A DNA stretch of 45,041 nucleotides from a virus (IMGVR_UViG_2802429245_000013); one strand, 5' to 3'; counted from the stretch's first letter, positions 1 to 27,896 are shown. Translations and numbers: made by a program. The notes: generated by a model from the letters alone, not told the origin.

Positions 1-834
1 CTCGCCCTGACCTTCACTGGTAGGGATAAGGTGCAGGCACTCTTCCGAACGACGAAAAATCAGACCAAAGGCTTCGTTGAAAATCCTCAGCGCATTAACA
101 CCACGGATTTTCAGTTCCCCGGTCATCAAATCACCAGATTTTTTTACATATCGCAGATCAAAATCTGAATAGATATTTCCAGGATTTATCACACTGAAAT
201 AGCTTTTCTCGCTATCAAGAAGGCAAATCAAAGGAATACCCTTAATGATATCATTCGCCACCAGCTCGGACTTGTTCCCCTTATAAAGTGGGAACGTACC
301 AAGAACCTTTCCGCCTAGTGTTAGTTGAAGTGTCGCCGCGTTGGTATTGTTCTGAACGGGGAAAACGATAATCGGGGTTCGTAGCGTCCAATCTGTACCC
401 TCATTAACAAAAAACGTCGAGGGAAGTTCCAGCGTCAGTGTGTTTGCAGTGCCACCAGCAACACCCGCAATATAATGACCGCTCTGAAGCTGCGCAATCT
501 GTACGAAATAGTTTTCCGATCCACGCGTGGCAAAGTTAGCCACAACGTCATTAAGGGACCAACCTTTCGCGGTTGTTCCTTCCTGCCCACGAATGACTTT
601 CAGCACATCACCGCTTACCGATACCAGGTGACAAATCTCAAATGCAGACTCTTTATTATCGGTAAGCGTAATTTTTGCATAGACGCGTTGCCCGTTCGAT
701 TTATTTTCAAAATCGGCAGAAAGCAATTTTGCAAATTTAGCTCCCGTGCCCGGCATCACCGGAATATCAGTCTGAATCGTCGTAATATCACCAGCCAGTG
801 CTGAAACAACGTTATTGCCGAATCCAAGAATCAT
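1..834 (-). CDS. Tail fibre protein, N-terminal 278 codons; gene continues beyond window start
   Basis: Minus-strand frame open from 834 to position 1 (hand-translated; not in ORF track because no stop in window). ATG at 834-832 overlaps stop of upstream gene (ATGA). Translation MILGFGNNVVSALAGD...DLRYVKKSGDLMTGELKIRG is tail-fibre-like; last gene of tail operon. Confidence 0.6.
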   Translation of the reverse strand, partial: MILGFGNNVVSALAGDITTIQTDIPVMPGTGAKFAKLLSADFENKSNGQRVYAKITLTDNKESAFEICHLVSVSGDVLKVIRGQEGTTAKGWSLNDVVANFATRGSENYFVQIAQLQSGHYIAGVAGGTANTLTLELPSTFFVNEGTDWTLRTPIIVFPVQNNTNAATLQLTLGGKVLGTFPLYKGNKSELVANDIIKGIPLICLLDSEKSYFSVINPGNIYSDFDLRYVKKSGDLMTGELKIRGVNALRIFNEAFGLIFRRSEECLHLIPTSEGQGE

Positions 835-1457
835 TTTTGAATCACCGTTGTTGCATAGGAATAAATAAAAGGGAGTTTTACATATTTCTGGTCAATGGCA
901 TCTTTCAGAAAATAGCCTATACCATCACCATATTCTGGTATCTGAATAGAAAAAACACTGTCCGATACAGTCACGCTCACATCAAAAGTGTGCTGCAACG
1001 GCGGGTCTATTCCGTTTTTCCCATGAATGAACCGCGCCACACGGCGCTTTAACCAGTCAATGCAGAAATGCGAACCGTCAGCCTTATAAAAATTCCACGT
1101 TAATATTCGTTTGAAATAATCATCAGGGACATACGATGCCTGCCCCGGAACGTAATTCCGCATTGCTGCGTACGGGATCGTATTGTATTCAATGGTATCG
1201 TATGCGCCGCGTGCAATAGCCTCCTCGGAAACCTGTAGTAAAGGCCTTTCAACGCCATAAATCCCGAGTGCAATCCAGTCCAGCAATTGCCCGGTTATTG
1301 ATTCCGATGTCCAGCATGGCAATGCCAGATTGTTGAGTGAATCGAGGTATTCCTGAGCAATTTCATTGTATGCATCAAAGAACGCAACAACATTCGGATC
1401 ATCTCTGTACTGCACAAATGGATAAGCAGGGAGAATTTTCTCAGTCAGATATTGCAT
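831..1457 (-). CDS. Baseplate protein (P2 gpI / Mu gp48-like position), about 208 aa
   Basis: ORF 831..1565 trimmed to first ATG after upstream stop (MQYLTEKILPAYPF...); lies between J-like gene and tail fibre. Confidence 0.45.
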   Translation of the reverse strand: MQYLTEKILPAYPFVQYRDDPNVVAFFDAYNEIAQEYLDSLNNLALPCWTSESITGQLLDWIALGIYGVERPLLQVSEEAIARGAYDTIEYNTIPYAAMRNYVPGQASYVPDDYFKRILTWNFYKADGSHFCIDWLKRRVARFIHGKNGIDPPLQHTFDVSVTVSDSVFSIQIPEYGDGIGYFLKDAIDQKYVKLPFIYSYATTVIQK

Positions 1458-2667
1458 ACTTGTTGACCTGAACCTGTGATGCCACCGTTGAAAAATAGGA
1501 ATAGGTATCGCCATAAACCAGGCTTGTGTCTTTTGCCGGAAGAACAATATGGCCGTTAATACCAATGCTCACACTGATTGTTGAGATCAACGTCGCATCA
1601 ACCAGCAATTTTACGGAGCTGGTAAAAATATCCTGGATTCGCAGCAGATTTATCGGGTGACCGACTTCAATAGAATTGATGTAATCAGCAACGTTTTGCT
1701 GCACAGCCATAGCAATACCCGCCGGATCAACATAATCATCAGACACCGTGTTCCAGGTGATTAGCACCATGACGTTTTGTGATGACGGGATAACGAACGG
1801 CACCTGATAAACGTCCGGCGAAACGGTTATTGAAACCGTGCGTTTTTCCACTGCCGCACCGGATGGATTGCTAACATCGTTGGTCAGTTTCGAAATATCC
1901 GGTACAGATTTGTAAATCGCATAAGCCACATCATACGGATCACCGCCACCAACAACCGCAACCCATTTCCCCAACGACGACTGCCGGAAAGAAATCAGGT
2001 TTTCTCGCACACCGCTTACTGATTTGAGCATCGCTTTAAAGCAATCCGGTGTTCCCTGCACACCAAACATGCCGGACTCCATGACTTCGGCGCGGTATGA
2101 TGCCCACGTTTGCGCCTCCTGACCTGGCATCCCTGCGGTTAGGTTGGTGCATTTTACAGGCTGGTCTTTGGGTACTGATGTAATGACCTGCGTCACGGTC
2201 CCTTCCGGTACAGCCCATGAGCCTGACGTAGTGGCCACACAGTAGACTGGTTCAGTCTGCCCACTTTCCGGCACCACCGTATCGCGGGAAACCGCATACT
2301 GGTAGTTACCGTCTCCAACCACAAATCCTTTAGGGATACCAAACCCCGGCAACGCCTCAAACACCACGTATACCGCCGTATTTGTACTTAATCCCTTCTG
2401 TGCTCCATAAATGTTTCCGAGTTGCATCAGTAACGGAATATTTGCGCCGTATGGGCTTACGGAGTTAATAAGGTCCACCCGCGCCTGGTCTATTAATGCC
2501 AGCGCCCCGACAGCCGTGCTGGCAAGGTCTGTAATAAGTCCTGCCGGAAGGTTGGCTGTATATCCAGGTACTTTTTCAGCAACTCTGGTGATAAGATTCG
2601 CGAGCAAATCATTGGGTGGCGTAGGCTGCGCACCCGCACTGGTCATAGTAATTGGTATTTCAGACAT
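1441..2667 (-). CDS. Baseplate J-like protein (gp47/J family), 408 aa
   Basis: ORF track 1441..2667; size and position upstream of gpI-like and fibre genes in a contractile-tail baseplate cluster. Confidence 0.55.
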   Translation of the reverse strand: MSEIPITMTSAGAQPTPPNDLLANLITRVAEKVPGYTANLPAGLITDLASTAVGALALIDQARVDLINSVSPYGANIPLLMQLGNIYGAQKGLSTNTAVYVVFEALPGFGIPKGFVVGDGNYQYAVSRDTVVPESGQTEPVYCVATTSGSWAVPEGTVTQVITSVPKDQPVKCTNLTAGMPGQEAQTWASYRAEVMESGMFGVQGTPDCFKAMLKSVSGVRENLISFRQSSLGKWVAVVGGGDPYDVAYAIYKSVPDISKLTNDVSNPSGAAVEKRTVSITVSPDVYQVPFVIPSSQNVMVLITWNTVSDDYVDPAGIAMAVQQNVADYINSIEVGHPINLLRIQDIFTSSVKLLVDATLISTISVSIGINGHIVLPAKDTSLVYGDTYSYFSTVASQVQVNKYAISD

Positions 2668-2678
2668 ATCTACCCCAT

Positions 2679-2703
2679 AAAAAAACCGCCGAAGCGGTTT
2701 TAA
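2679..2703 (-). terminator. Rho-independent terminator of the moron gene (also usable on + strand)
   Basis: A-run then hairpin AACCGCCGAAGCGGTT then T-rich; on minus strand the hairpin is followed by TTTTTTT, immediately downstream of the 2710..3456 gene. Confidence 0.6.
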
Positions 2704-2709
2704 GTTAAC

Positions 2710-3456
2710 TTATTTTGCCTGTTTCATTTTTTCCACCCTCTCAAGCATTCTTTTTACATTTGATGGAGGATAGTTAAATTCATCGCCGTCTCCAAAAGAA
2801 ATTTTTATAGGCTTCATTTTCATAACCAATTCTTTCAGAACCGCTTTACCAATTTCAGTTTTTGGTACTATAAAACCATTTCCATACAAGCATGATTTAT
2901 AAGTTTTATAATATTCACCATTAATCAAAATTGGTGGATACTCTAATGGTCCATCAATTTGCACTGAATTATCGCAAAATCCATTGCCTTTAGATTTTGA
3001 AGCAATAAAAATAGCTATTGTCCCATCATCGCCATACATCAGGAATCTATTTTTACTAACACCTTCCAGTGGAGGTAATATTATCAGTGCACCATCAATA
3101 TACCATTCAGCGTAATTCTTTGATTCATTGATTATGTTCTCATTAATTTCATTTAAAGATGAATATTCCCTGAATGCATTAGAATACCATTGTCGAACAC
3201 ATGATTCTGTTTTGCACTTCTCTCTTTCATTCCACAAGTCTGAAACAATTTTTCTAAAAGCTTTCTTATCAGCGCTCTCTAACTTTACTTTTTGATATAA
3301 AGAATTTAATTTATCATCAAGTTCAGATAATTCACTGTTGCTGCAAATTAACTTTTCAGAATATGATTTAGCTTTCGAGCAATCAAAAGATACCGCATTC
3401 GCAGTTCCGATTTGTAATAAAAAAGCAAACACTACAAATAATTTAAACTTAATCAT
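2710..3456 (-). CDS. Secreted moron protein: signal peptide plus DUF1311/LprI-like Cys-containing N-terminal domain, unknown C-terminal domain
   Basis: ORF track 248 aa; N-terminal hydrophobic leader MIKFKLFVVFAFLLQIGTANA; motif CSKAKSYSEKLICSNSELSELDDKLNSLYQKV...C...C; strong RBS AAGGAG 7 nt before ATG; visibly AT-rich relative to flanks. Confidence 0.6.
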   Translation of the reverse strand: MIKFKLFVVFAFLLQIGTANAVSFDCSKAKSYSEKLICSNSELSELDDKLNSLYQKVKLESADKKAFRKIVSDLWNEREKCKTESCVRQWYSNAFREYSSLNEINENIINESKNYAEWYIDGALIILPPLEGVSKNRFLMYGDDGTIAIFIASKSKGNGFCDNSVQIDGPLEYPPILINGEYYKTYKSCLYGNGFIVPKTEIGKAVLKELVMKMKPIKISFGDGDEFNYPPSNVKRMLERVEKMKQAK

Positions 3457-3485
3457 CCGTAATCTCCTTAAAAACAGGAGATTAA

Positions 3486-3513
3486 ATTTTACCCATTCTT
3501 AATGTCCGTTCAA
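3486..3513 (-). promoter_or_regulatory. Candidate sigma70 promoter of the moron (TTGAAC-16-TAAAAT on minus strand)
   Basis: Minus-strand hexamers read from sequence: -35 TTGAAC (complement of 3508-3513), 16-nt spacer, -10 TAAAAT (complement of 3486-3491), about 25 nt upstream of the RBS. Confidence 0.4.
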
Positions 3514-3580
3514 GTTCATACTTTACAACCGCGCCCAGTTGAGTATGATTAAGCGCATGAGGCGTCGAAACCTCTTCTCA

Positions 3581-3659
3581 GTGCGGTCACAACCAACCCC
3601 GTTAGTGTTGGATTTTTTATGCCTGCTATTTAGTGATGGCACAATGTGCGGTCACATCC
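3581..3659. repeat. Two copies of a 14-bp direct repeat GTGCGGTCACA(A/T)CC, 65 bp apart, upstream of antA-like gene
   Basis: 3581-3594 gtgcggtcacaacc and 3646-3659 gtgcggtcacatcc; candidate regulator binding sites. Confidence 0.5.
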
Positions 3660-3788
3660 CCGAACAATGTCGGGAGGGCGACGAATACAACACCCGAAAG
3701 GGGAATAAGTCCGCGGCCTCACTGAGCCGTTTCGAACCTCCCGGCTCCACTCCGATAGTGGAAATTCGAAAAAATCAGTGAGGTCGTT

Positions 3789-4358
3789 ATGACAATACAA
3801 TTAATCCCCGTTTTCAACGGAACTATCTCAAACGAAACCGCCCTACTCTGTAATGCTCGTGATCTGCACGCTTTTCTTGGTGTAGGTAAGGTTTTCGCTG
3901 CCTGGATTACATCCCGCATCGCAGAATACGGATTTACAGAAAATCAAGATTACATTTTGCTTTCCAAAACAGGAAAGCAATCGTTAGGAGGCAGAGGAGG
4001 ACATAACCGCAAGGACTACCACCTCACCCTAGACACTGCCAAAGAGCTGGCAATGGTCGAGCGCAACGAAAAAGGACGCCAGATCCGCCGATACTTCATC
4101 GAGTGCGAGAAGAAGCTGCGCGAAGATACCACCAGCACACAATCCCCTCTGAATGTTGACATCATCATGCGCGTCAGAAACGGCTCGGTTACCCACATTG
4201 AGCACCACAAATCAGGCTCAGTTATCACCACAGAATGGGCAATTCACTTACTACGCAAAAGTGGATGGATTGTCATGCCACGCGATGAACTTCTTAACAC
4301 GCCACTGGCCCAACTGATGCCCGAAAATTTGACTCAAACCGGAACCTGCGTCCGGTAA
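3789..4358 (+). CDS. AntA/AntB-type phage antirepressor-like protein, 189 aa
   Basis: ORF track; N-terminal region ...ALLCNARDLHAFLGVGKVFAAWITSRIAEYGFTENQDYILL... resembles AntA antirepressor domain; opposite strand to surrounding tail genes; RBS GAGG 5 nt before ATG. Confidence 0.55.
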   Translation: MTIQLIPVFNGTISNETALLCNARDLHAFLGVGKVFAAWITSRIAEYGFTENQDYILLSKTGKQSLGGRGGHNRKDYHLTLDTAKELAMVERNEKGRQIRRYFIECEKKLREDTTSTQSPLNVDIIMRVRNGSVTHIEHHKSGSVITTEWAIHLLRKSGWIVMPRDELLNTPLAQLMPENLTQTGTCVR

Positions 4359-4681
4359 CTGGTCCCATTAAAAAACACAACATCAATGTTATAGGTGGGG
4401 TTCTCTGCCCCATCTACCTTTGAAATTGCCAGCGATGCAAAATACCCGGCAAACTGTTGCTGAACCATGTTCACATAGTAGTCCGGGTAAATTTGCTGCA
4501 CGATGCACTGCTGCGCTGGAATGCCGTAATTCGCGTAAAACGGCGACTCCCCCAACCCCAGCTTTAACGTCTGAATGAGCGTCGTCAGCCAGCCGTAGGA
4601 GAAATCACCGCTGGCGTCTGACTCTACTGCAACCCATTTTTTGTTGCCGTTCGCGTCGGTGACGCGGCCCCATGTTCTCAT
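4334..4681 (-). CDS. Phage tail/baseplate protein, 115 aa (occupies gp25/W-like wedge position)
   Basis: ORF track; size and position between spike (V-like) and J-like genes; sequence itself not recognisably gp25-like to me. Confidence 0.4.
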   Translation of the reverse strand: MRTWGRVTDANGNKKWVAVESDASGDFSYGWLTTLIQTLKLGLGESPFYANYGIPAQQCIVQQIYPDYYVNMVQQQFAGYFASLAISKVDGAENPTYNIDVVFFNGTSYRTQVPV

Positions 4682-4685
4682 GCGT

Positions 4686-4849
4686 CAACCTTTCAAGTAA
4701 ATTAGGGTACCGGTAACCAGAGCGGTGCAAATGATCCACGCTACTGGAGTCAGAATATGCCGAATCCCCCGACATACTGCGATTATTCTCGCAGCCTTAT
4801 CAGCCCCTTGTGGGGTTGTCTCAGCCTTAAGAATCAGTTCGCTATCCAT
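4686..4849 (-). CDS. Small membrane protein, 54 aa, C-terminal TM segment
   Basis: Hand-found ORF below track cutoff: MDSELILKAETTPQGADKAARIIAVCRGIRHILTPVAWIICTALVTGTLIYLKG; RBS AAAGG 6 nt before ATG; stop 5 nt before next gene start. Confidence 0.35.
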
Positions 4850-5009
4850 TTAGAACCTTTATGATCTCTGCGATTCCCGGAAGCGATTTAGCAACTGCAA
4901 ACCCTCCGATAACTATAAGAACTGCATAAAACATTCTTCTCAGAACCGGACTTCTTTCGAGCAATTTTAGAGCTTCCACAATCCAGTCTCCTCCGCTAAA
5001 ATTAATCAC
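4842..5009 (-). CDS. Small membrane protein, 55 aa, central TM segment, GTG start
   Basis: Hand-found ORF: VINFSGGDWIVEALKLLERSPVLRRMFYAVLIVIGGFAVAKSLPGIAEIIKVLNG; RBS GGAGG 6 nt before GTG; stop overlaps downstream ATG (ATGGATAG). Confidence 0.35.
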   Translation of the reverse strand: MINFSGGDWIVEALKLLERSPVLRRMFYAVLIVIGGFAVAKSLPGIAEIIKVLNG

Positions 5010-5064
5010 GGAAGACCTCCAAACATACGTAATTATCCCTTGCCTTATTCAAGGTCAGAAACAG

Positions 5065-5096
5065 AAAGCCCCGACTGTTTGCCCAGTCGGGGCTTT
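5065..5096 (-). terminator. Terminator-like hairpin just downstream of V-like gene
   Basis: Perfect 13-bp stem AAAGCCCCGACTG / CAGTCGGGGCTTT; on minus strand followed by CTGTTTCT (weak U-tract). Confidence 0.4.
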
Positions 5097-5134
5097 CGCT
5101 TTATGGATAGAATTTAAAGTGAAATGAACCGGTA

Positions 5135-5848
5135 TTAACCCGGATTTGGTTTCTTTGACGTGATCGTGCTGTTGCCGCTTTGAACCCCAGTCACATCGTG
5201 GCTGTGACCGCTGGCGCTGACACCTTTTATCATCGCGTCGTTTTGCACAGTAAGCGGGCCAATCAGCGAAGCAGTTGTATCCTTCATCTGGGCTTTGTCC
5301 TGGACGATCGGTCCGTTGAGGTGAATTTGACCGTTCATGAAGATATCTTCGGCCTCGAGGTAAACAGCTTTCGACTTTAGCCTGATTTCTTCCGGTGCCA
5401 CCGTTACCGAGCTACTGCCGTCCTCTGTTTTGAGGATCGCGCCATCCGGACCGTACAAAACGATTTTTTGCGGATCTTCGTCGGACCAGTCCTTGTTTGC
5501 CAGTGGCACGAAAAACAGTGGAGTGAGCGACATCGAGTAAGAAAGCGTCGCCATACCGGTTCCCAATCCGGACACACCGCGCAGGGATACATCAGCGGCA
5601 ATTGTTACTCCTCGATCGCCCGGCTGTATCGGGTAACGAATATACGGGAATGTGGCGACAGGGATTGTTATCTGCGGAAAGTTGATCCCCTCCGGCAGCA
5701 TATCAAACTGAACTGTCACTATCTGCCCGCTGACACCGACAACATGGCAGGGCAATTCACGGCCTTTAAGCTCGGCTTGCTGGTTGCCGGAAAAGGACAC
5801 CATTTCCGAAAAGCGTTGGAGAGGTAGTCGTTTTTGAGCGTTTGACAT
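5135..5848 (-). CDS. Baseplate spike / assembly protein V-like, 237 aa
   Basis: ORF track; position after hub gene; Gly/Ser-rich C-terminus typical of spike proteins. Confidence 0.5.
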   Translation of the reverse strand: MSNAQKRLPLQRFSEMVSFSGNQQAELKGRELPCHVVGVSGQIVTVQFDMLPEGINFPQITIPVATFPYIRYPIQPGDRGVTIAADVSLRGVSGLGTGMATLSYSMSLTPLFFVPLANKDWSDEDPQKIVLYGPDGAILKTEDGSSSVTVAPEEIRLKSKAVYLEAEDIFMNGQIHLNGPIVQDKAQMKDTTASLIGPLTVQNDAMIKGVSASGHSHDVTGVQSGNSTITSKKPNPG

Positions 5849-6855
5849 TACACCCTCACCCAGTTTTCAGCATACGCCTCGAACACTGTCACCCATGCAT
5901 CACCATCGGCCGTCAGATACGAGCCAATGTGTCTGACAGATTTAACCATAAATTTTCCGGTAAACGTGGTCGAGTTTTTGGAGATAACGCTAGGAGCCAT
6001 TGTATTAGCCATCACAATCGACGCTGCACCTGAATATAGCCCCTCCGGTAGTTTAACCACATCACCACATCTGATATCACCTCTCATTGGGCATTTGAAA
6101 CTGACAGTAAACGGCTCAATCCAAGTCGGCTGTCCAACCAGTTCATGGGCATGAATTGTTTTAGGTTCTCCCCACTTTGCCGACACGTTATCGTAAATTC
6201 GTATTCTGTCGGAAAGAATGCTGATGGCTATTCCGCTATATTTCGCATCACGCATCATCGCTATGGATGCGTTTTTTACGACCATCGCTAACGAGCCAAT
6301 ATTCTTATAGGACGCAGCCCATCTCTCAGGTAAAACAAGGCTGTCATTGACCAGACATTCAATCTTTTTTTTAGGAAAAGCTTCTTTCAGTGCACGTGCG
6401 ATAACATCCCCTACTTTCTCACCAGCTTCACCTTTACCCTCGATTGAGAAAGGGCTTCCATCTTCTTTTTTTCTGAGCGTTGGATTAATAACCAGATTCA
6501 ACGTCTGGTTGGTGCCAATCCAGTTAGCATAAGCCAGATAGACTTCACCGTAGATGATTTCCCCCTGCTGCTCAGGGTTGGCCAGAGGCAATCCTTCTGA
6601 AAACCCACCCCGCATTCTTACAATACACCCTTGCAAGTTAACGCTCTGTTTAAGCATATCGAGCGGTAAACCATATATCGCAAGCATGGTTCCCGAGTTC
6701 ACCACATCAAGTCCAGTCACCTGCACGTCAAATTCAATATGTAACCCACACCCGGGTGTTTTACTGGTATCAAAAGGCCCGATAGGTTTACCGTTGCAAT
6801 CCACTGGCGGCTTGCCTGTTTTAGGATTGATGATTTCCAGTCGGTAATAGCGCAT
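5848..6855 (-). CDS. Baseplate hub protein (Mu P / late control D-like position), 335 aa
   Basis: ORF track; start overlaps upstream stop; contractile-tail gene order. Confidence 0.45.
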   Translation of the reverse strand: MRYYRLEIINPKTGKPPVDCNGKPIGPFDTSKTPGCGLHIEFDVQVTGLDVVNSGTMLAIYGLPLDMLKQSVNLQGCIVRMRGGFSEGLPLANPEQQGEIIYGEVYLAYANWIGTNQTLNLVINPTLRKKEDGSPFSIEGKGEAGEKVGDVIARALKEAFPKKKIECLVNDSLVLPERWAASYKNIGSLAMVVKNASIAMMRDAKYSGIAISILSDRIRIYDNVSAKWGEPKTIHAHELVGQPTWIEPFTVSFKCPMRGDIRCGDVVKLPEGLYSGAASIVMANTMAPSVISKNSTTFTGKFMVKSVRHIGSYLTADGDAWVTVFEAYAENWVRV

Positions 6856-17686: not shown

Positions 17687-18500
17687 GTTTGCCCTTCTCC
17701 GTTAAAAATTCGTCGGGTAGTTTCTGAGGGGCGTAGATCGGCAGAGCATCGCAACTGCAATAAACCTCCTCCCCGGCAGCAGTGATTTCGTCATAAAAAC
17801 CATATACGGGCTTAATAAGCCCCTGCTCCAGCGCCCACGAATCGCGGAGGAGATAAATTTTCTCGTCGCGCTCTTTGTGGTCCTGTCGGTATTTGTAGCC
17901 CGGACGCCGCCAGTTAGAATGCCAGCGCAGAGCAATCGCACCACTCTGAACAGCCAGCAGATACTTAACGTTGCTCGCCAGCTTATGTCCCTGGTCAATT
18001 GCCACCCGGCGACTGATAAAATCCATATCCTTCACGGACTTCTGAAAACCGGACTTCACTTCCCGGCGATCAATTTCGCTCACCCCGTCAGGCGGAATGG
18101 ACGTAACCCATCCCTGAAAACGCTGTATAGTTTTCTCGATAGCCTGTTCGCGGTTGAGTTTTATCAGGTTGGCACTGGCGAAAATTCGCCTGTCGAGTTC
18201 CTTGCGAAACTCAGGTTTCAGTTTTTCAACAGTGATTTTTTTAGGGCCGTCAGGAGGCTGATCCCGTAATGCCCCGCCGTCGATGACAAGACGGCTGTAG
18301 ATAGCGGTGAGGTGTTTTCTGGCTACGGTATCATCAGGGGTTTCTCGCTGAGCGGCTACACGGAGTTTCCGGCACCATTCGAGCAATGATTTTTCGCTAT
18401 CCCACCCGTGATTTACGTAGTAGTTAACGGCATCCGTCAGAACCTCATATAGCGTCCTGATCCGTTTCTTCTTCCTCACCGCCCGGCTGGAAATTGCCAT
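17667..18500 (-). CDS. Head morphogenesis protein (Mu F / SPP1 gp7-like), about 277 aa
   Basis: ORF 17667..18638 trimmed to ATG at 18500 with RBS AGGAG 7 nt upstream; follows portal gene. Confidence 0.45.
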   Translation of the reverse strand: MAISSRAVRKKKRIRTLYEVLTDAVNYYVNHGWDSEKSLLEWCRKLRVAAQRETPDDTVARKHLTAIYSRLVIDGGALRDQPPDGPKKITVEKLKPEFRKELDRRIFASANLIKLNREQAIEKTIQRFQGWVTSIPPDGVSEIDRREVKSGFQKSVKDMDFISRRVAIDQGHKLASNVKYLLAVQSGAIALRWHSNWRRPGYKYRQDHKERDEKIYLLRDSWALEQGLIKPVYGFYDEITAAGEEVYCSCDALPIYAPQKLPDEFLTEKGKREFNRA

Positions 18501-19881
18501 CAGGCGTCTCCTGCTTCGGTGGTTCATAATTCGCCAGCGCGTCCACATCAATGATGAGTGGAGCTTCGCCATAGGTTTGCGTGGCATTAACAAGGCTTGC
18601 CAGCCATTCAGTGACGGCGGCACGGTTTTCAGGATCAACCTGTGGCGACACGGCAGAGAAAAGTGCTATCGCCTGTTGAATCACTTTACTGTCGCTTTCC
18701 CGGCGTTTGTCCGGCGACTCCTCCACCAGCTCCTGCCATGTCGCGGTAAATTCACGTCGCCACTGGTAAAACGTGGTTTTATAGTCATCAGTTATGATGT
18801 CCGGGTAATCATTTTTCAGCGACTGATAAAATTCCTCGTTCCAGGCGATGTACTGCACCAGGCGTTCGAAATAATCCATCACGGGTTCAATCTGCTGGCG
18901 TACACCATCGATATACTGGCTGATGGCTTTCGAATCTTCGGTCCCCTCACCGAAACCATTCGAAAAGGCTTCCTCTTTGATGAGGATCGCCGGAACGTCA
19001 CTCCCTGACGCAATATCGGAAATAATATTGTCGCGTGCAGCGTTTAGCGCACCATCGATGTTTTGTAGATTTAGCGAGGTAACGTCCTCATCCTTCCCGA
19101 TACTAAGCACACCTTTATTTTTTGCCTCTTTGACGTTTTCCCTTTTTCGTCCCGTGGCGGCAGCCATGAGCCCGTCAAGTTTCGAACCGTACTGCACAAC
19201 TTTAGCTACCAGTACGCCCGCCTTCTGGCTGACGAGATCATTCGCCTCCATCGTGTTGATATAGGATTTCAGGGAATAAAGAACGCGCTGAAACACACTT
19301 CGTCCGGTGAATCCGAACGATGAACTCTGAAACTCCAGATAAATCGGTGTGCCGTTGAAGATTTTCAGTGTGCGTGACGGATGCCAGTCTTTTCCGCCAA
19401 TCTTCAGTTTTTTATTGGCTTCCTGGAAAAACGGGCTGTTGGGGTTCTGGTCAGTCACCATCGAACCGGAAGCGTTCAACGGGTCCCACGCGTTGATATA
19501 CACGTCATCTTCTGTCAGTCCGAACGTCGGAAGCGGTTCACGACATGAAACACTGTCGGTGCCCACGCCGATCGCTGCGGCACCGTAGCAACGAGACAGA
19601 AAAAACAGATTTTTAATCTTCTCGTTAACCTTCATACGTTCCCATACCTCCTGGAAACGCCGCACAACCCGCTCGTCAGGGTCTGTCTCCACGTTGTACT
19701 GGCGCGGCTTACACATCGCCATAAGTATGGGTTTTTCGACAAGTTTCCCGCCCAGCGGGTGGTACTGCCACAGCAGTTTACACAGTTCATAGCCAATGTC
19801 GGTTCCCGGCTGAATTTCTTCAGCCTCAAGAATGCGCATCAACGAAGAACTGAGATTTACAGAAATCTCGATCTCAGCCAT
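18445..19881 (-). CDS. Portal protein, 478 aa
   Basis: ORF track; size and position directly after terminase large subunit; acidic C-terminus. Confidence 0.6.
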   Translation of the reverse strand: MAEIEISVNLSSSLMRILEAEEIQPGTDIGYELCKLLWQYHPLGGKLVEKPILMAMCKPRQYNVETDPDERVVRRFQEVWERMKVNEKIKNLFFLSRCYGAAAIGVGTDSVSCREPLPTFGLTEDDVYINAWDPLNASGSMVTDQNPNSPFFQEANKKLKIGGKDWHPSRTLKIFNGTPIYLEFQSSSFGFTGRSVFQRVLYSLKSYINTMEANDLVSQKAGVLVAKVVQYGSKLDGLMAAATGRKRENVKEAKNKGVLSIGKDEDVTSLNLQNIDGALNAARDNIISDIASGSDVPAILIKEEAFSNGFGEGTEDSKAISQYIDGVRQQIEPVMDYFERLVQYIAWNEEFYQSLKNDYPDIITDDYKTTFYQWRREFTATWQELVEESPDKRRESDSKVIQQAIALFSAVSPQVDPENRAAVTEWLASLVNATQTYGEAPLIIDVDALANYEPPKQETPDGNFQPGGEEEETDQDAI

Positions 19882-26546: not shown

Positions 26547-26621
<75 letters not shown>

Positions 26622-26624
26622 ATA

Positions 26625-26700
<76 letters not shown>

Positions 26701-27066: not shown

Positions 27067-27522
27067 TTATTGGCTTTCTCCGCATAACGCCAATTTCATT
27101 GGTATATACAGAATGTGTTCAGCAACACCCAACCATGCATCAATGCGATTTCTGCAAGTTTTCAAGCTCCAGCCAGGGCGATACTTATTTAACTGTTGTG
27201 CCATTTTCAGCTTACTCATCCCCCGCCCTTCATATCTTTGTCGGAGGATAAAAATCAATCCAGGATGCTCTGCCATCACTTCACTAATTACCCGGTCAAT
27301 ACATAACGCCTCGGCATCAGTGCAATGGGACAGCCAGCTTTTTTGCTTACTGTCGATCATCTCACGCAAAAATGCTTCCAGCTCTGGCTTCTCTATTCCC
27401 GCTTTTTTCATTCTGCGCAGAGCTTCATTGATGGCTGTTTTCGTCAATTTTTTGGATGCCAGCAACTGGTTGAACATATTCCCCGTCTTACCGCCACCAA
27501 TATACGACCAGCGCCCCCACAT
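27067..27522 (-). CDS. Late-gene antiterminator Q-like protein, about 151 aa
   Basis: Position (last early gene before late terminator and lysis genes); ORF 27067..27729 trimmed because its 5-prime part overlaps the upstream gene; assignment is positional plus weak sequence impression. Confidence 0.45.
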   Translation of the reverse strand: MWGRWSYIGGGKTGNMFNQLLASKKLTKTAINEALRRMKKAGIEKPELEAFLREMIDSKQKSWLSHCTDAEALCIDRVISEVMAEHPGLIFILRQRYEGRGMSKLKMAQQLNKYRPGWSLKTCRNRIDAWLGVAEHILYIPMKLALCGESQ

Positions 27523-27605
27523 ACGCAGTTTTCCCTGAATCCAGACACTTTCCAGCGTGGTGAGACGAAGGTGTTCTCCGCTTTTTCCTGTATTCGTTGG
27601 GTAAA

Positions 27606-27896
27606 TCACAAATATCCCTCCTTTCTCCAGATTTCTTGTGTGCGAAAAACACCTTCTGCATGCATCAGGCGTAATTCTTCTTTGGTGTAATCGCTGGTTT
27701 TTACCCGCCCGTCGATTAAATCGTGGCACGAGCTACAGGCAATCGCGGCCTGCATATCGTGTGGCTTTATCGCTGTTCCGCACGTTCCCGCCAGTCGGTA
27801 ATGCGCCAGCACAGACGTTTCGGGATTGTGATTGCAGTAGCCAGGAATTCTGACCTGGCACATCTGGCCCCGCGCCGCTTTACGTAAATCCACCAT
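27606..27896 (-). CDS. YbcO-like Cys-rich nin-region protein, 96 aa
   Basis: ORF track; Cys pattern C..C....C...CSSCH; nin-region position upstream of Q. Confidence 0.5.
   Translation of the reverse strand: MVDLRKAARGQMCQVRIPGYCNHNPETSVLAHYRLAGTCGTAIKPHDMQAAIACSSCHDLIDGRVKTSDYTKEELRLMHAEGVFRTQEIWRKEGYL

Follow-up and report, generated by a model that had tools for sequence, protein, structure and literature searches.

Whether genes that lie inside an essential structural operon belong to the structure or are passengers in it is the question raised by IMGVR_UViG_2802429245_000013, a viral sequence of 45,041 nt (the whole of this stretch is called the window below). Its contractile-tail module carries the baseplate and fibre run V, gp25, J, I and fibre, and an original prediction, made from the sequence, held that this run is interrupted at two junctions by three cargo units and forms an insertion hotspot. 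From a comparison with related loci, we conclude that the two junctions flanking the gp25-like gene are very probably a moron (accessory-gene) hotspot in a Rac-like, Q-regulated, contractile-tailed E. coli prophage, where terminators that belong to the site would be passed by Q-dependent read-through. The cargo in the window consists of two small membrane proteins, an antirepressor (ant) with an upstream c4-like RNA, and a secreted protein of foreign composition.

Two junctions around the gp25-like gene are open

Neighbouring tail genes in the window abut or overlap, and exactly two junctions among them are open (Table 1). Junction 1, V|gp25, spans 453 nt (4682-5134) and holds a hairpin, T1, and two overlapping small open reading frames (ORFs); junction 2, gp25|J, spans 1666 nt (2668-4333) and holds the plus-strand ant gene, a 332-nt divergent control region, an LprI-like gene and a second hairpin, T2. 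Gene calls, family matches and these gap lengths agree with the predicted interruption of the run at exactly two places by three units.

The gene between the two junctions encodes 115 amino acids (aa) and occupies the position of gp25, Mu gp46 or TssE. Its product had no match in Pfam or NCBIfam, was not recognised by the GPW_gp25 profile and showed no significant match to PDB chains when compared by sequence, and it is at most a candidate member of the gp25 family. The order hub-V-115aa-J-I is kept in 110 loci from several phyla, with Enterobacterales, Burkholderia, Acinetobacter, Nitrospira and Desulfobulbia represented, and the 115-aa gene stands between V and J in every one of them. The protein is treated here, by its position, as a core baseplate protein and is called gp25-like.

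Loci were gathered by means of the 115-aa protein from IMG/VR (80 loci) and from genomes (23 loci), and annotated E. coli and phage records were added. Four junctions (hub|V, V|115, 115|J and J|I, where 115 is the 115-aa gene) were measured per locus in 110 related loci, and relatives were graded by identity of the 115-aa protein as close (>=90%), mid (73-90%) or far (<73%). The V|115 gap measured 242-1528 nt in all 61 close relatives, and 115|J exceeded 100 nt in 60 of the 61, with a maximum of 3135 nt. Mid relatives had a V|115 gap of -4 to +17 nt (31/31) and a 115|J gap of either 48-61 nt or 469-1682 nt, and in far relatives, such as those in Burkholderia, Acinetobacter and Nitrospira, V mostly overlapped the 115-aa gene and 115|J was mostly -7 to +20 nt. 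An empty gp25|J spacer of 48-61 nt was present in 11 Enterobacterales loci, and outside these and most far relatives the gp25|J gap measured 469-3135 nt. The control junctions hub|V and J|I were closed in nearly all of the same loci; J|I is an overlap (-17 nt) that is invariant among close relatives, and the two exceptions at hub|V are probably due to a frameshifted hub gene. Because the controls stay closed in the same loci, the variability of the other two junctions goes beyond chance, and since these two are hypervariable while V, gp25 and J of distant relatives abut or overlap, the intervening genes are best regarded as cargo, not core. Relatives do not keep them as core tail components, the one outcome that the original prediction had set against its own hotspot, and the hotspot is thus upheld.

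The open junctions are filled in many ways. There were 53 distinct gap sequences at V|115 and 72 at 115|J, corresponding to about 15 and about 29 gene layouts, and the cargo of close relatives, taken over both junctions, was drawn from at least 18 protein families. The three cargo units of the window are found independently of each other in relatives. As is characteristic of morons, genes are present or absent at the same position between conserved flanks, and this applies to both junctions; J is 99% identical among E. coli-type loci irrespective of cargo. Relatives have exchanged cargo, and the breakpoints coincide with the ends of the highly conserved genes on either side. Homology to the window breaks sharply at 2667/2668 (the start of J), at 4681 (the start of the 115-aa gene) and at 5038-5058 (just beyond T1), so that comparison with related tail modules does define the junctions, as had been proposed. 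Inside junction 2 the breaks lie at the edges of the ant module (3516-3558, 3865 or 4324). We rejected an arrival of the cargo by transposition or site-specific insertion, since no flanking direct or inverted repeats past short chance matches were found, and recombinational exchange appears preferable.

Cargo at 115|J includes AntA and KilA-N antirepressors, the LprI-like protein, an HSDR_N endonuclease, a YafO toxin with its partner, at least 10 unrelated signal-peptide or lipoprotein families, and a protein that looks like ProQ/FinO (a by-eye judgement of its sequence, made without a family library). At V|115, four families of small membrane proteins and one Rha regulator were found. The ant gene is present in 37 of 62 close loci, with other cargo in the remainder, and a 391-aa HSDR_N protein (phrog_4225 'endonuclease', E 4.7e-149) replaces the ant and LprI content in about 20 close relatives. 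Genes of this HSDR_N group (L023-L048; for example L027:5520-6700, plus strand of the locus) are co-oriented with the tail genes and have T2 behind them, and their product, which PADLOC did not match, is a candidate prophage-encoded nuclease. Two phages whose genomes were deposited as complete, Rac-SA53 and vB_Apl-pPE4, also have layouts with cargo, and the same junction architecture was seen in about 60 IMG/VR viral contigs.

Table 1. Positions of features of the baseplate region, and of the late antiterminator gene, in the window.
Feature	Position (nt)	Strand	Match or remark
Gene at gpI / Mu gp48 position	831-1457	-	phrog_8212, E 2.8e-119
Baseplate J; conserved right flank of junction 2	1441-2667	-	Pfam Baseplate_J, 8.3e-8; phrog_6, E 3.9e-38
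T2: hairpin AAAACCGC-UUCG-GCGGUUUU, then U-run (U7)	2679-2700	-	fold -10.3 to -11 kcal/mol; ends ~12 nt ahead of J start
LprI-like gene, secreted 248-aa protein	2710-3456	-	signal-peptide-like N terminus; PGAP name 'LprI family'
Promoter-like TTGAAC-16-TAAAAT, upstream of LprI-like gene	3486-3513	-	9/12, consensus match only
Promoter-like TTTACA-16-TATGAT, upstream of ant leader	3522-3549	+	10/12, consensus match only
sRNA-Xcc1 motif (Rfam RF02221), 36 nt upstream of ant	3669-3753	+	72.4 bits (gathering 53), E 1.7e-13
Target TCAGTGAGGTCG, overlapping ant Shine-Dalgarno	3775-3786	+	complementary to motif loop 3714-3725
ant, AntA/AntB-family antirepressor, 189 aa	3789-4358	+	convergent with gp25-like gene, 25-nt overlap of its 3' end
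115-aa core baseplate gene (gp25 / Mu gp46 / TssE position)	4334-4681	-	phrog_7986
Small ORF 2, 54 aa (cargo)	4685-4849	-	one predicted membrane helix; 8-nt overlap with ORF 1; stops 3 nt short of gp25-like start
Small ORF 1, 55 aa (cargo)	4842-5009	-	one predicted membrane helix; GTG start behind GGAGG
T1: 14-bp GC-rich hairpin, bidirectional terminator-like	5064-5097	both	~35 nt past V stop; A-tract before, T-tract after
V-like baseplate spike gene, 237 aa; conserved left flank of junction 1	5135-5848	-	
Hub	5848-6855	-	phrog_196
Q-like late antiterminator, head of minus-strand late operon	27067-27609	-	phrog_753 'anti-termination protein Q-like', E 4.6e-76

Conserved hairpins bracket the cargo

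The bay of cargo is bracketed by two conserved intrinsic-terminator-like hairpins, T1 after V and T2 before J. T1 folds with a free energy (dG) of -31.1 kcal/mol (z -6.45) on the minus strand and -29.1 kcal/mol (z -5.2) on the plus strand, was also found by the terminator scan, and is kept with co-varying stems in 32 of 32 unique variants, that is, in all 60 loci with an open V|gp25 junction. This count comes from folding each variant, as a regular expression alone caught 12 of the 60 loci since loop and stem vary. The Rfam families 'sar' and 'rimP leader' also scored on T1, with 24 and 26 bits against gathering thresholds of 43 and 47, and were rejected as sub-threshold hairpin look-alikes.

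T1 does not end the small-ORF unit: it stands directly after V and is thus upstream of the small ORFs on their strand. The original prediction that two of the units end in terminators survives in part. A U7 hairpin, T2, does follow the LprI-like gene, but it appears to be a property of the site, not of the LprI cassette, because it is also found in cargo-free relatives. A GC-rich T2-like hairpin followed by T6-T9 lies directly before the J ribosome-binding site in 10 of the 11 empty Enterobacterales spacers, and the stems at these empty sites change compensatorily (CCCGC/GCGGG, CACCC/GGGTG and CACCCG/CGGGTG). Where cargo adjacent to J is co-oriented with J, T2 was present in 37 of 42 loci regardless of the identity of that cargo; where the adjacent cargo is divergent, it was present in 1 of 39, a class in which a divergent ORF begins about 21 nt from the J ATG. 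T2 was scored by per-sequence folding together with a rule-based scan, as variation in loop length misaligned the 5' arms for a formal count of pairs.

The promoter-like hexamers of ant and of the LprI-like gene stand back to back in the intergenic region that the two genes share, and the ant site lies inside the ant module, which moves as a unit and has its left breakpoints at 3516-3558. With a GC content of 31% (30-32%) against 45-55% in the flanks, the LprI-like gene is atypical in composition; ant and the small ORFs, at 45-51%, are not. Homologues of the LprI-like protein are scarce: 5.8 billion proteins yielded 3 clusters of them, which makes it a near-orphan. It scored 18.2 bits against Pfam LprI (PF07007, cutoff 22), aligning residues 26-66 with profile positions 1-47 of 106, and it matched phrog_33858 (E 4.9e-26) in its N-terminal half only. 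As the Pfam score is below the cutoff and coverage is partial (about the first 40 mature residues), the PGAP name 'lysozyme inhibitor LprI family' seems weakly founded and should be used with caution. Homologues of small ORF 1 (family F1) are 51-100% identical, and the ORF is kept in many loci and missing from others; its product gave no match in Pfam, PHROGs, PADLOC or NCBIfam. Small ORF 2 (family F8) is limited to a subset of loci.

A c4-like RNA precedes the antirepressor gene

The product of ant belongs to an antirepressor family, with a Pfam AntA (PF08346) match of 1.1e-25 (90.5 bits, cutoff 27) and matches to PHROG anti-repressor families at E 3e-66 to 3e-54. The sRNA-Xcc1 motif ahead of it is matched over the full length of the model (positions 1-87 of 87), and nine more matches were obtained in relatives at 57-78 bits. 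In relatives the motif stands ahead of every full-length ant, and of a KilA-N gene; loci in which ant is absent or 5'-truncated do not have it. A search of window positions 2400-5400 gave no Rfam match to the P1/P7 C4 family (RF01695) at E <= 1.

The variable loop of the 3' hairpin of this RNA (3714-3725) and the target site at the ant Shine-Dalgarno form a 12-nt inverted repeat (I12) that is 92% complementary, and the two are paired in the minimum-energy fold. Loop and site co-vary in eight local variants. The set was enlarged by a pattern scan of IMG/VR, which added 120 further sRNA-Xcc1 loci (L113-L232) to the local ones (L001, L006, L007, L010, L014, L016, L021, L047, L060 and L064). Over 41 distinct loop variants, complementarity to the cognate site averaged 7.3 nt (minimum 6) versus 5.2 nt for non-cognate sites, and 0 of 2000 permutations reached the observed mean. 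The linker UUUCGAA and the sequence UUCGAAA, about 18 nt before the ATG, make up another contact that co-varies. The RNA thus shares with the c4 type the presence of single-stranded elements complementary to the downstream mRNA at and before the ribosome-binding site and varying with their targets, and translation of ant is probably held in check by this upstream RNA, whose loop is predicted to pair with the ant ribosome-binding region.

Proteins encoded downstream of the motif carry antirepressor-type N-terminal domains in 22 of the 25 representatives scanned, divided among KilA-N (5), Bro-N (5), P22_AR_N (4), pRha (4), AntA (2) and ORF6N (2). The outer stem of the RNA is followed by an RCCA-like sequence, GGCUCCAC here and GGCACCAC in most relatives. 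In the published mentions that we found, sRNA-Xcc1 appears as a small RNA of Xanthomonas or Xylella, upstream of symE in integron cassettes and upstream of an ORF6N gene in APSE phages, and none of these mentions contains a c4-like mechanism.

Some further features of the ant leader were seen. One relative has two tandem sRNA-Xcc1 copies upstream of ant (L060:3942-4240, minus strand); the distal copy, which bears a loop of another specificity class (the L014 type) and has no gene of its own, might as an orphan work in trans. Between the promoter-like site of ant and the RNA motif, the 14-nt sequence GTGCGGTCACA[A/T]CC is directly repeated on the plus strand (3581-3594 and 3646-3659, a distance of 65 nt), and inverted partial copies of it lie inside V at 5196-5211; the repeat could serve as an operator or in processing. 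Two candidate controls were rejected. There is no LexA box (CTGT-N8-ACAG, at most 1 mismatch) near ant, and such boxes occur at chance frequency window-wide; a small hairpin with a U-run at 3592-3620, considered as a leader attenuator, is unstable (dG -4.7, z +0.8).

The prophage and its late operon

The prophage is one of E. coli; over this region its identity is 99.6% with strain 401651 and about 92% with phage Rac-SA53. The tail module occupies positions 1 to about 12,400 on the minus strand, in the order sheath, tube and chaperone; a tape-measure gene with a lytic transglycosylase domain; two small genes; and then hub, V-like, 115-aa, J, gpI-position and fibre genes. The E. coli record with 99.6% identity labels the V-like gene 'phage baseplate protein', and the product of this gene matches TIGR01644 (phage_P2_V) weakly, at E 3e-4, below the cutoff. 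ORFs for tail, head, lysis and terminase are all intact, and the early region is Rac-like (recET, kilR, ydaS/T). The late genes form a single operon, all on the minus strand, in which the Q-family gene stands immediately upstream of the tRNA, lysis, terminase, head and tail genes.

At the start of the late operon, two phage tRNA genes (Gly-tcc and Thr-tgt; 26547-26700, minus strand) separate the Q-like gene from the lysis cassette. A portal-adjacent protein in one relative (L089:20841-22277, corresponding to about 18445-19881 of the window, minus strand) is labelled 'anti-CBASS protein Acb1 family protein' by RefSeq. The tail region of the E. coli prophage is 93% identical to the record PP818812.1 (L002), whose depositors named it Actinobacillus phage vB_Apl-pPE4; this is surprising for a Pasteurellaceae host, and the record may represent an induced E. 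coli prophage or contamination.

How the operon may tolerate its cargo

The original prediction had pointed out that the baseplate and fibre genes downstream of the cargo need read-through or internal promoters. A model can be proposed in which the two hairpins and the Q-like protein meet this need. In the lysogen, cargo would be transcribed from its own promoters. Leftward transcripts, from the LprI-like gene and other co-oriented cargo, would end at T2, short of J, the gpI-position gene and the fibre genes, and rightward transcripts, from ant and other divergent cargo, would run antisense through the gp25-like gene and end at T1, before V, hub and tape-measure. During lytic growth, RNA polymerase modified by Q would pass both T1 and T2, and the downstream baseplate and fibre genes would be made. 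If the modified polymerase ignores the two hairpins in this way, the need for read-through is resolved.

Several observations weigh against this account. Each unit had been predicted to possess its own transcription signals, and promoter-like hexamers are indeed present for ant and the LprI-like gene, but the region holds 6 such sites against a shuffle expectation of 5.6 +/- 2.4, which is chance frequency, and the region scan gave none upstream of the small ORFs. T2 was left unlisted by the terminator scan, which counted its U's into the stem, and 5 co-oriented loci have no detectable T2; the U-tract of T1 is weak in the window (UGUUUCUG). T2 might simply be a leftover of earlier cassettes, and it is the comparative correlation that suggests an insulating role for T1 and T2. 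It is likewise family membership that points to the Q-like antiterminator, which would probably be the simplest source of read-through. Finally, a search of 10 cargo proteins for known defence systems with PADLOC gave no match.

A different view of the same locus makes the ant unit a resident second immunity region, similar to immI of P1 or P22, and restricts the true hotspots to the segment from the ant promoter to J and to the V|gp25 gap. This is possible, though we find it doubtful. The unit of ant and c4-like RNA is the commonest occupant and has a fixed 3' end, its left boundary at 3516-3558 is a recurrent breakpoint with variable genes beyond, P22 also carries ant within its late operon, and the logic of P1 immI fits the RNA; yet 25 of the 62 close loci are without ant and have an endonuclease or toxin pair instead, some loci have a 5'-truncated ant without the RNA, and the mid relatives lack the ant unit, bar one with a KilA-N version.

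Prophage decay, by which the cargo would be junk insertions in a defective Rac-like element whose tail operon is dispensable, is highly improbable. The Rac-like early region (recET, kilR, ydaST), some early genes annotated as partial and the frameshifted hub of one relative would suit it. Tail, head, lysis and terminase ORFs are intact in the window, however, the cargo ORFs are intact as well, J is 99% conserved, breakpoints respect gene boundaries, and phages with complete genomes and about 60 IMG/VR viral contigs share the architecture. That the intervening genes are lineage-specific conserved accessory components of the tail or baseplate (assembly factors or minor structural proteins) is hardly credible, for although the small ORFs are packed tightly with the gp25-like gene (8-nt overlap, 3-nt gap), which suggests translational coupling, and ant, in 37 of 62 close loci, always ends at the same point in the 3' end of the gp25-like gene, mid and far relatives with an intact hub-V-gp25-J-I order lack all these genes, close relatives swap in unrelated ones (Rha, HSDR_N endonuclease, YafO pair), and the signatures of ant and the LprI-like gene are regulatory and secreted, not structural.

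Comparison with known systems

The prediction had called such clustering of cargo inside an essential structural operon unusual, which overstates the case, as hotspots in late or structural operons are of a known kind. What is noteworthy here is how densely alternatives are gathered at two junctions next to each other, and that the terminators are owned by the site. Morons have been described in the lambdoid late operons of HK97 and HK022 (Juhala et al. 2000), with HK97 gp15 as one example (Cumby et al. 2012), both as cited in other work. As in those phages, the extra genes separate conserved late or structural neighbours, are present or absent among relatives, show atypical composition (here the LprI-like gene) and come with promoter-like and terminator-like signals in an operon that a Q-antiterminated polymerase reads, in our case by prediction. 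Unlike there, two junctions are open around one baseplate gene with dozens of layouts, the terminators belong to the site and not to each cassette, and some cargo is antisense to the operon.

P2-like phages have hotspots at Z/fun, between tail genes, and at old/tin, according to Rousset et al. (2022) and the iLund4u survey. Both there and here, a temperate phage with a contractile tail has a hypervariable accessory locus between conserved tail or baseplate genes, with nuclease-like and toxin-antitoxin genes among the cargo. The present locus differs in its Rac-like early region, its predicted Q regulation, its non-P2 baseplate proteins and its position on either side of the gp25-like gene instead of after the fibre genes, and none of the 10 cargo proteins searched matched a known defence family in PADLOC.

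In phage P22, immI (mnt-arc-ant, with the sar antisense RNA) lies inside the late operon. The likeness consists in an antirepressor module among late structural genes and in control of translation by a small RNA, which is predicted here. In P22, ant runs in the same direction as the late genes and sar is made from the opposite strand; in the window, ant runs against the operon and its putative regulator lies ahead of it on the same strand.

A parallel for the RNA itself is offered by immI of P1 and P7, where the antisense RNA c4 controls icd-ant (work by Citron and Schuster 1990 and Hartmann et al. 1995, summarised in PMC5320573); in that summary, c4 is described as processed by RNase P and as pairing through its loops with the ribosome-binding site and an upstream site of icd-ant mRNA. 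The RNA of the window resembles c4 in being small, structured, upstream of the antirepressor gene and on the same strand, in having variable single-stranded elements against two mRNA sites, one of them at the ribosome-binding site, and in an outer stem followed by an RCCA-like sequence as in an RNase P substrate. It differs in belonging to Rfam family sRNA-Xcc1 (RF02221) and not to C4 (RF01695), in the lack of an icd-like upstream ORF, and in downstream genes that span six antirepressor-type domain families.

Implications

The hotspot around the gp25-like gene has precise limits (gp25-like stop, T2 and J start on one side; V stop, T1 and gp25-like start on the other) and is represented by many examples. 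It offers a place to look for genes of lysogenic conversion, superinfection exclusion or defence in prophages of Enterobacterales. Most of its cargo is uncharacterised. The orientation rule of T2, a terminator if the cargo points at J and none if it points away, suggests how phages tolerate foreign transcription units within an essential operon. Tentatively, with confidence somewhat short of even, we extend this to a picture in which an insulated, bidirectionally terminated platform carries functions expressed in the lysogen, and in which sRNA-Xcc1, until now regarded as a trans-acting virulence sRNA of Xanthomonas, is a widespread c4-type phage immunity RNA that would gate at least six antirepressor-like families through a programmable contact between loop and ribosome-binding site, its loop variants corresponding to hetero-immunity classes. 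If this is true, a curated RNA family would be re-interpreted, and c4-type antisense control of antirepressors would be extended far beyond P1 and P7.

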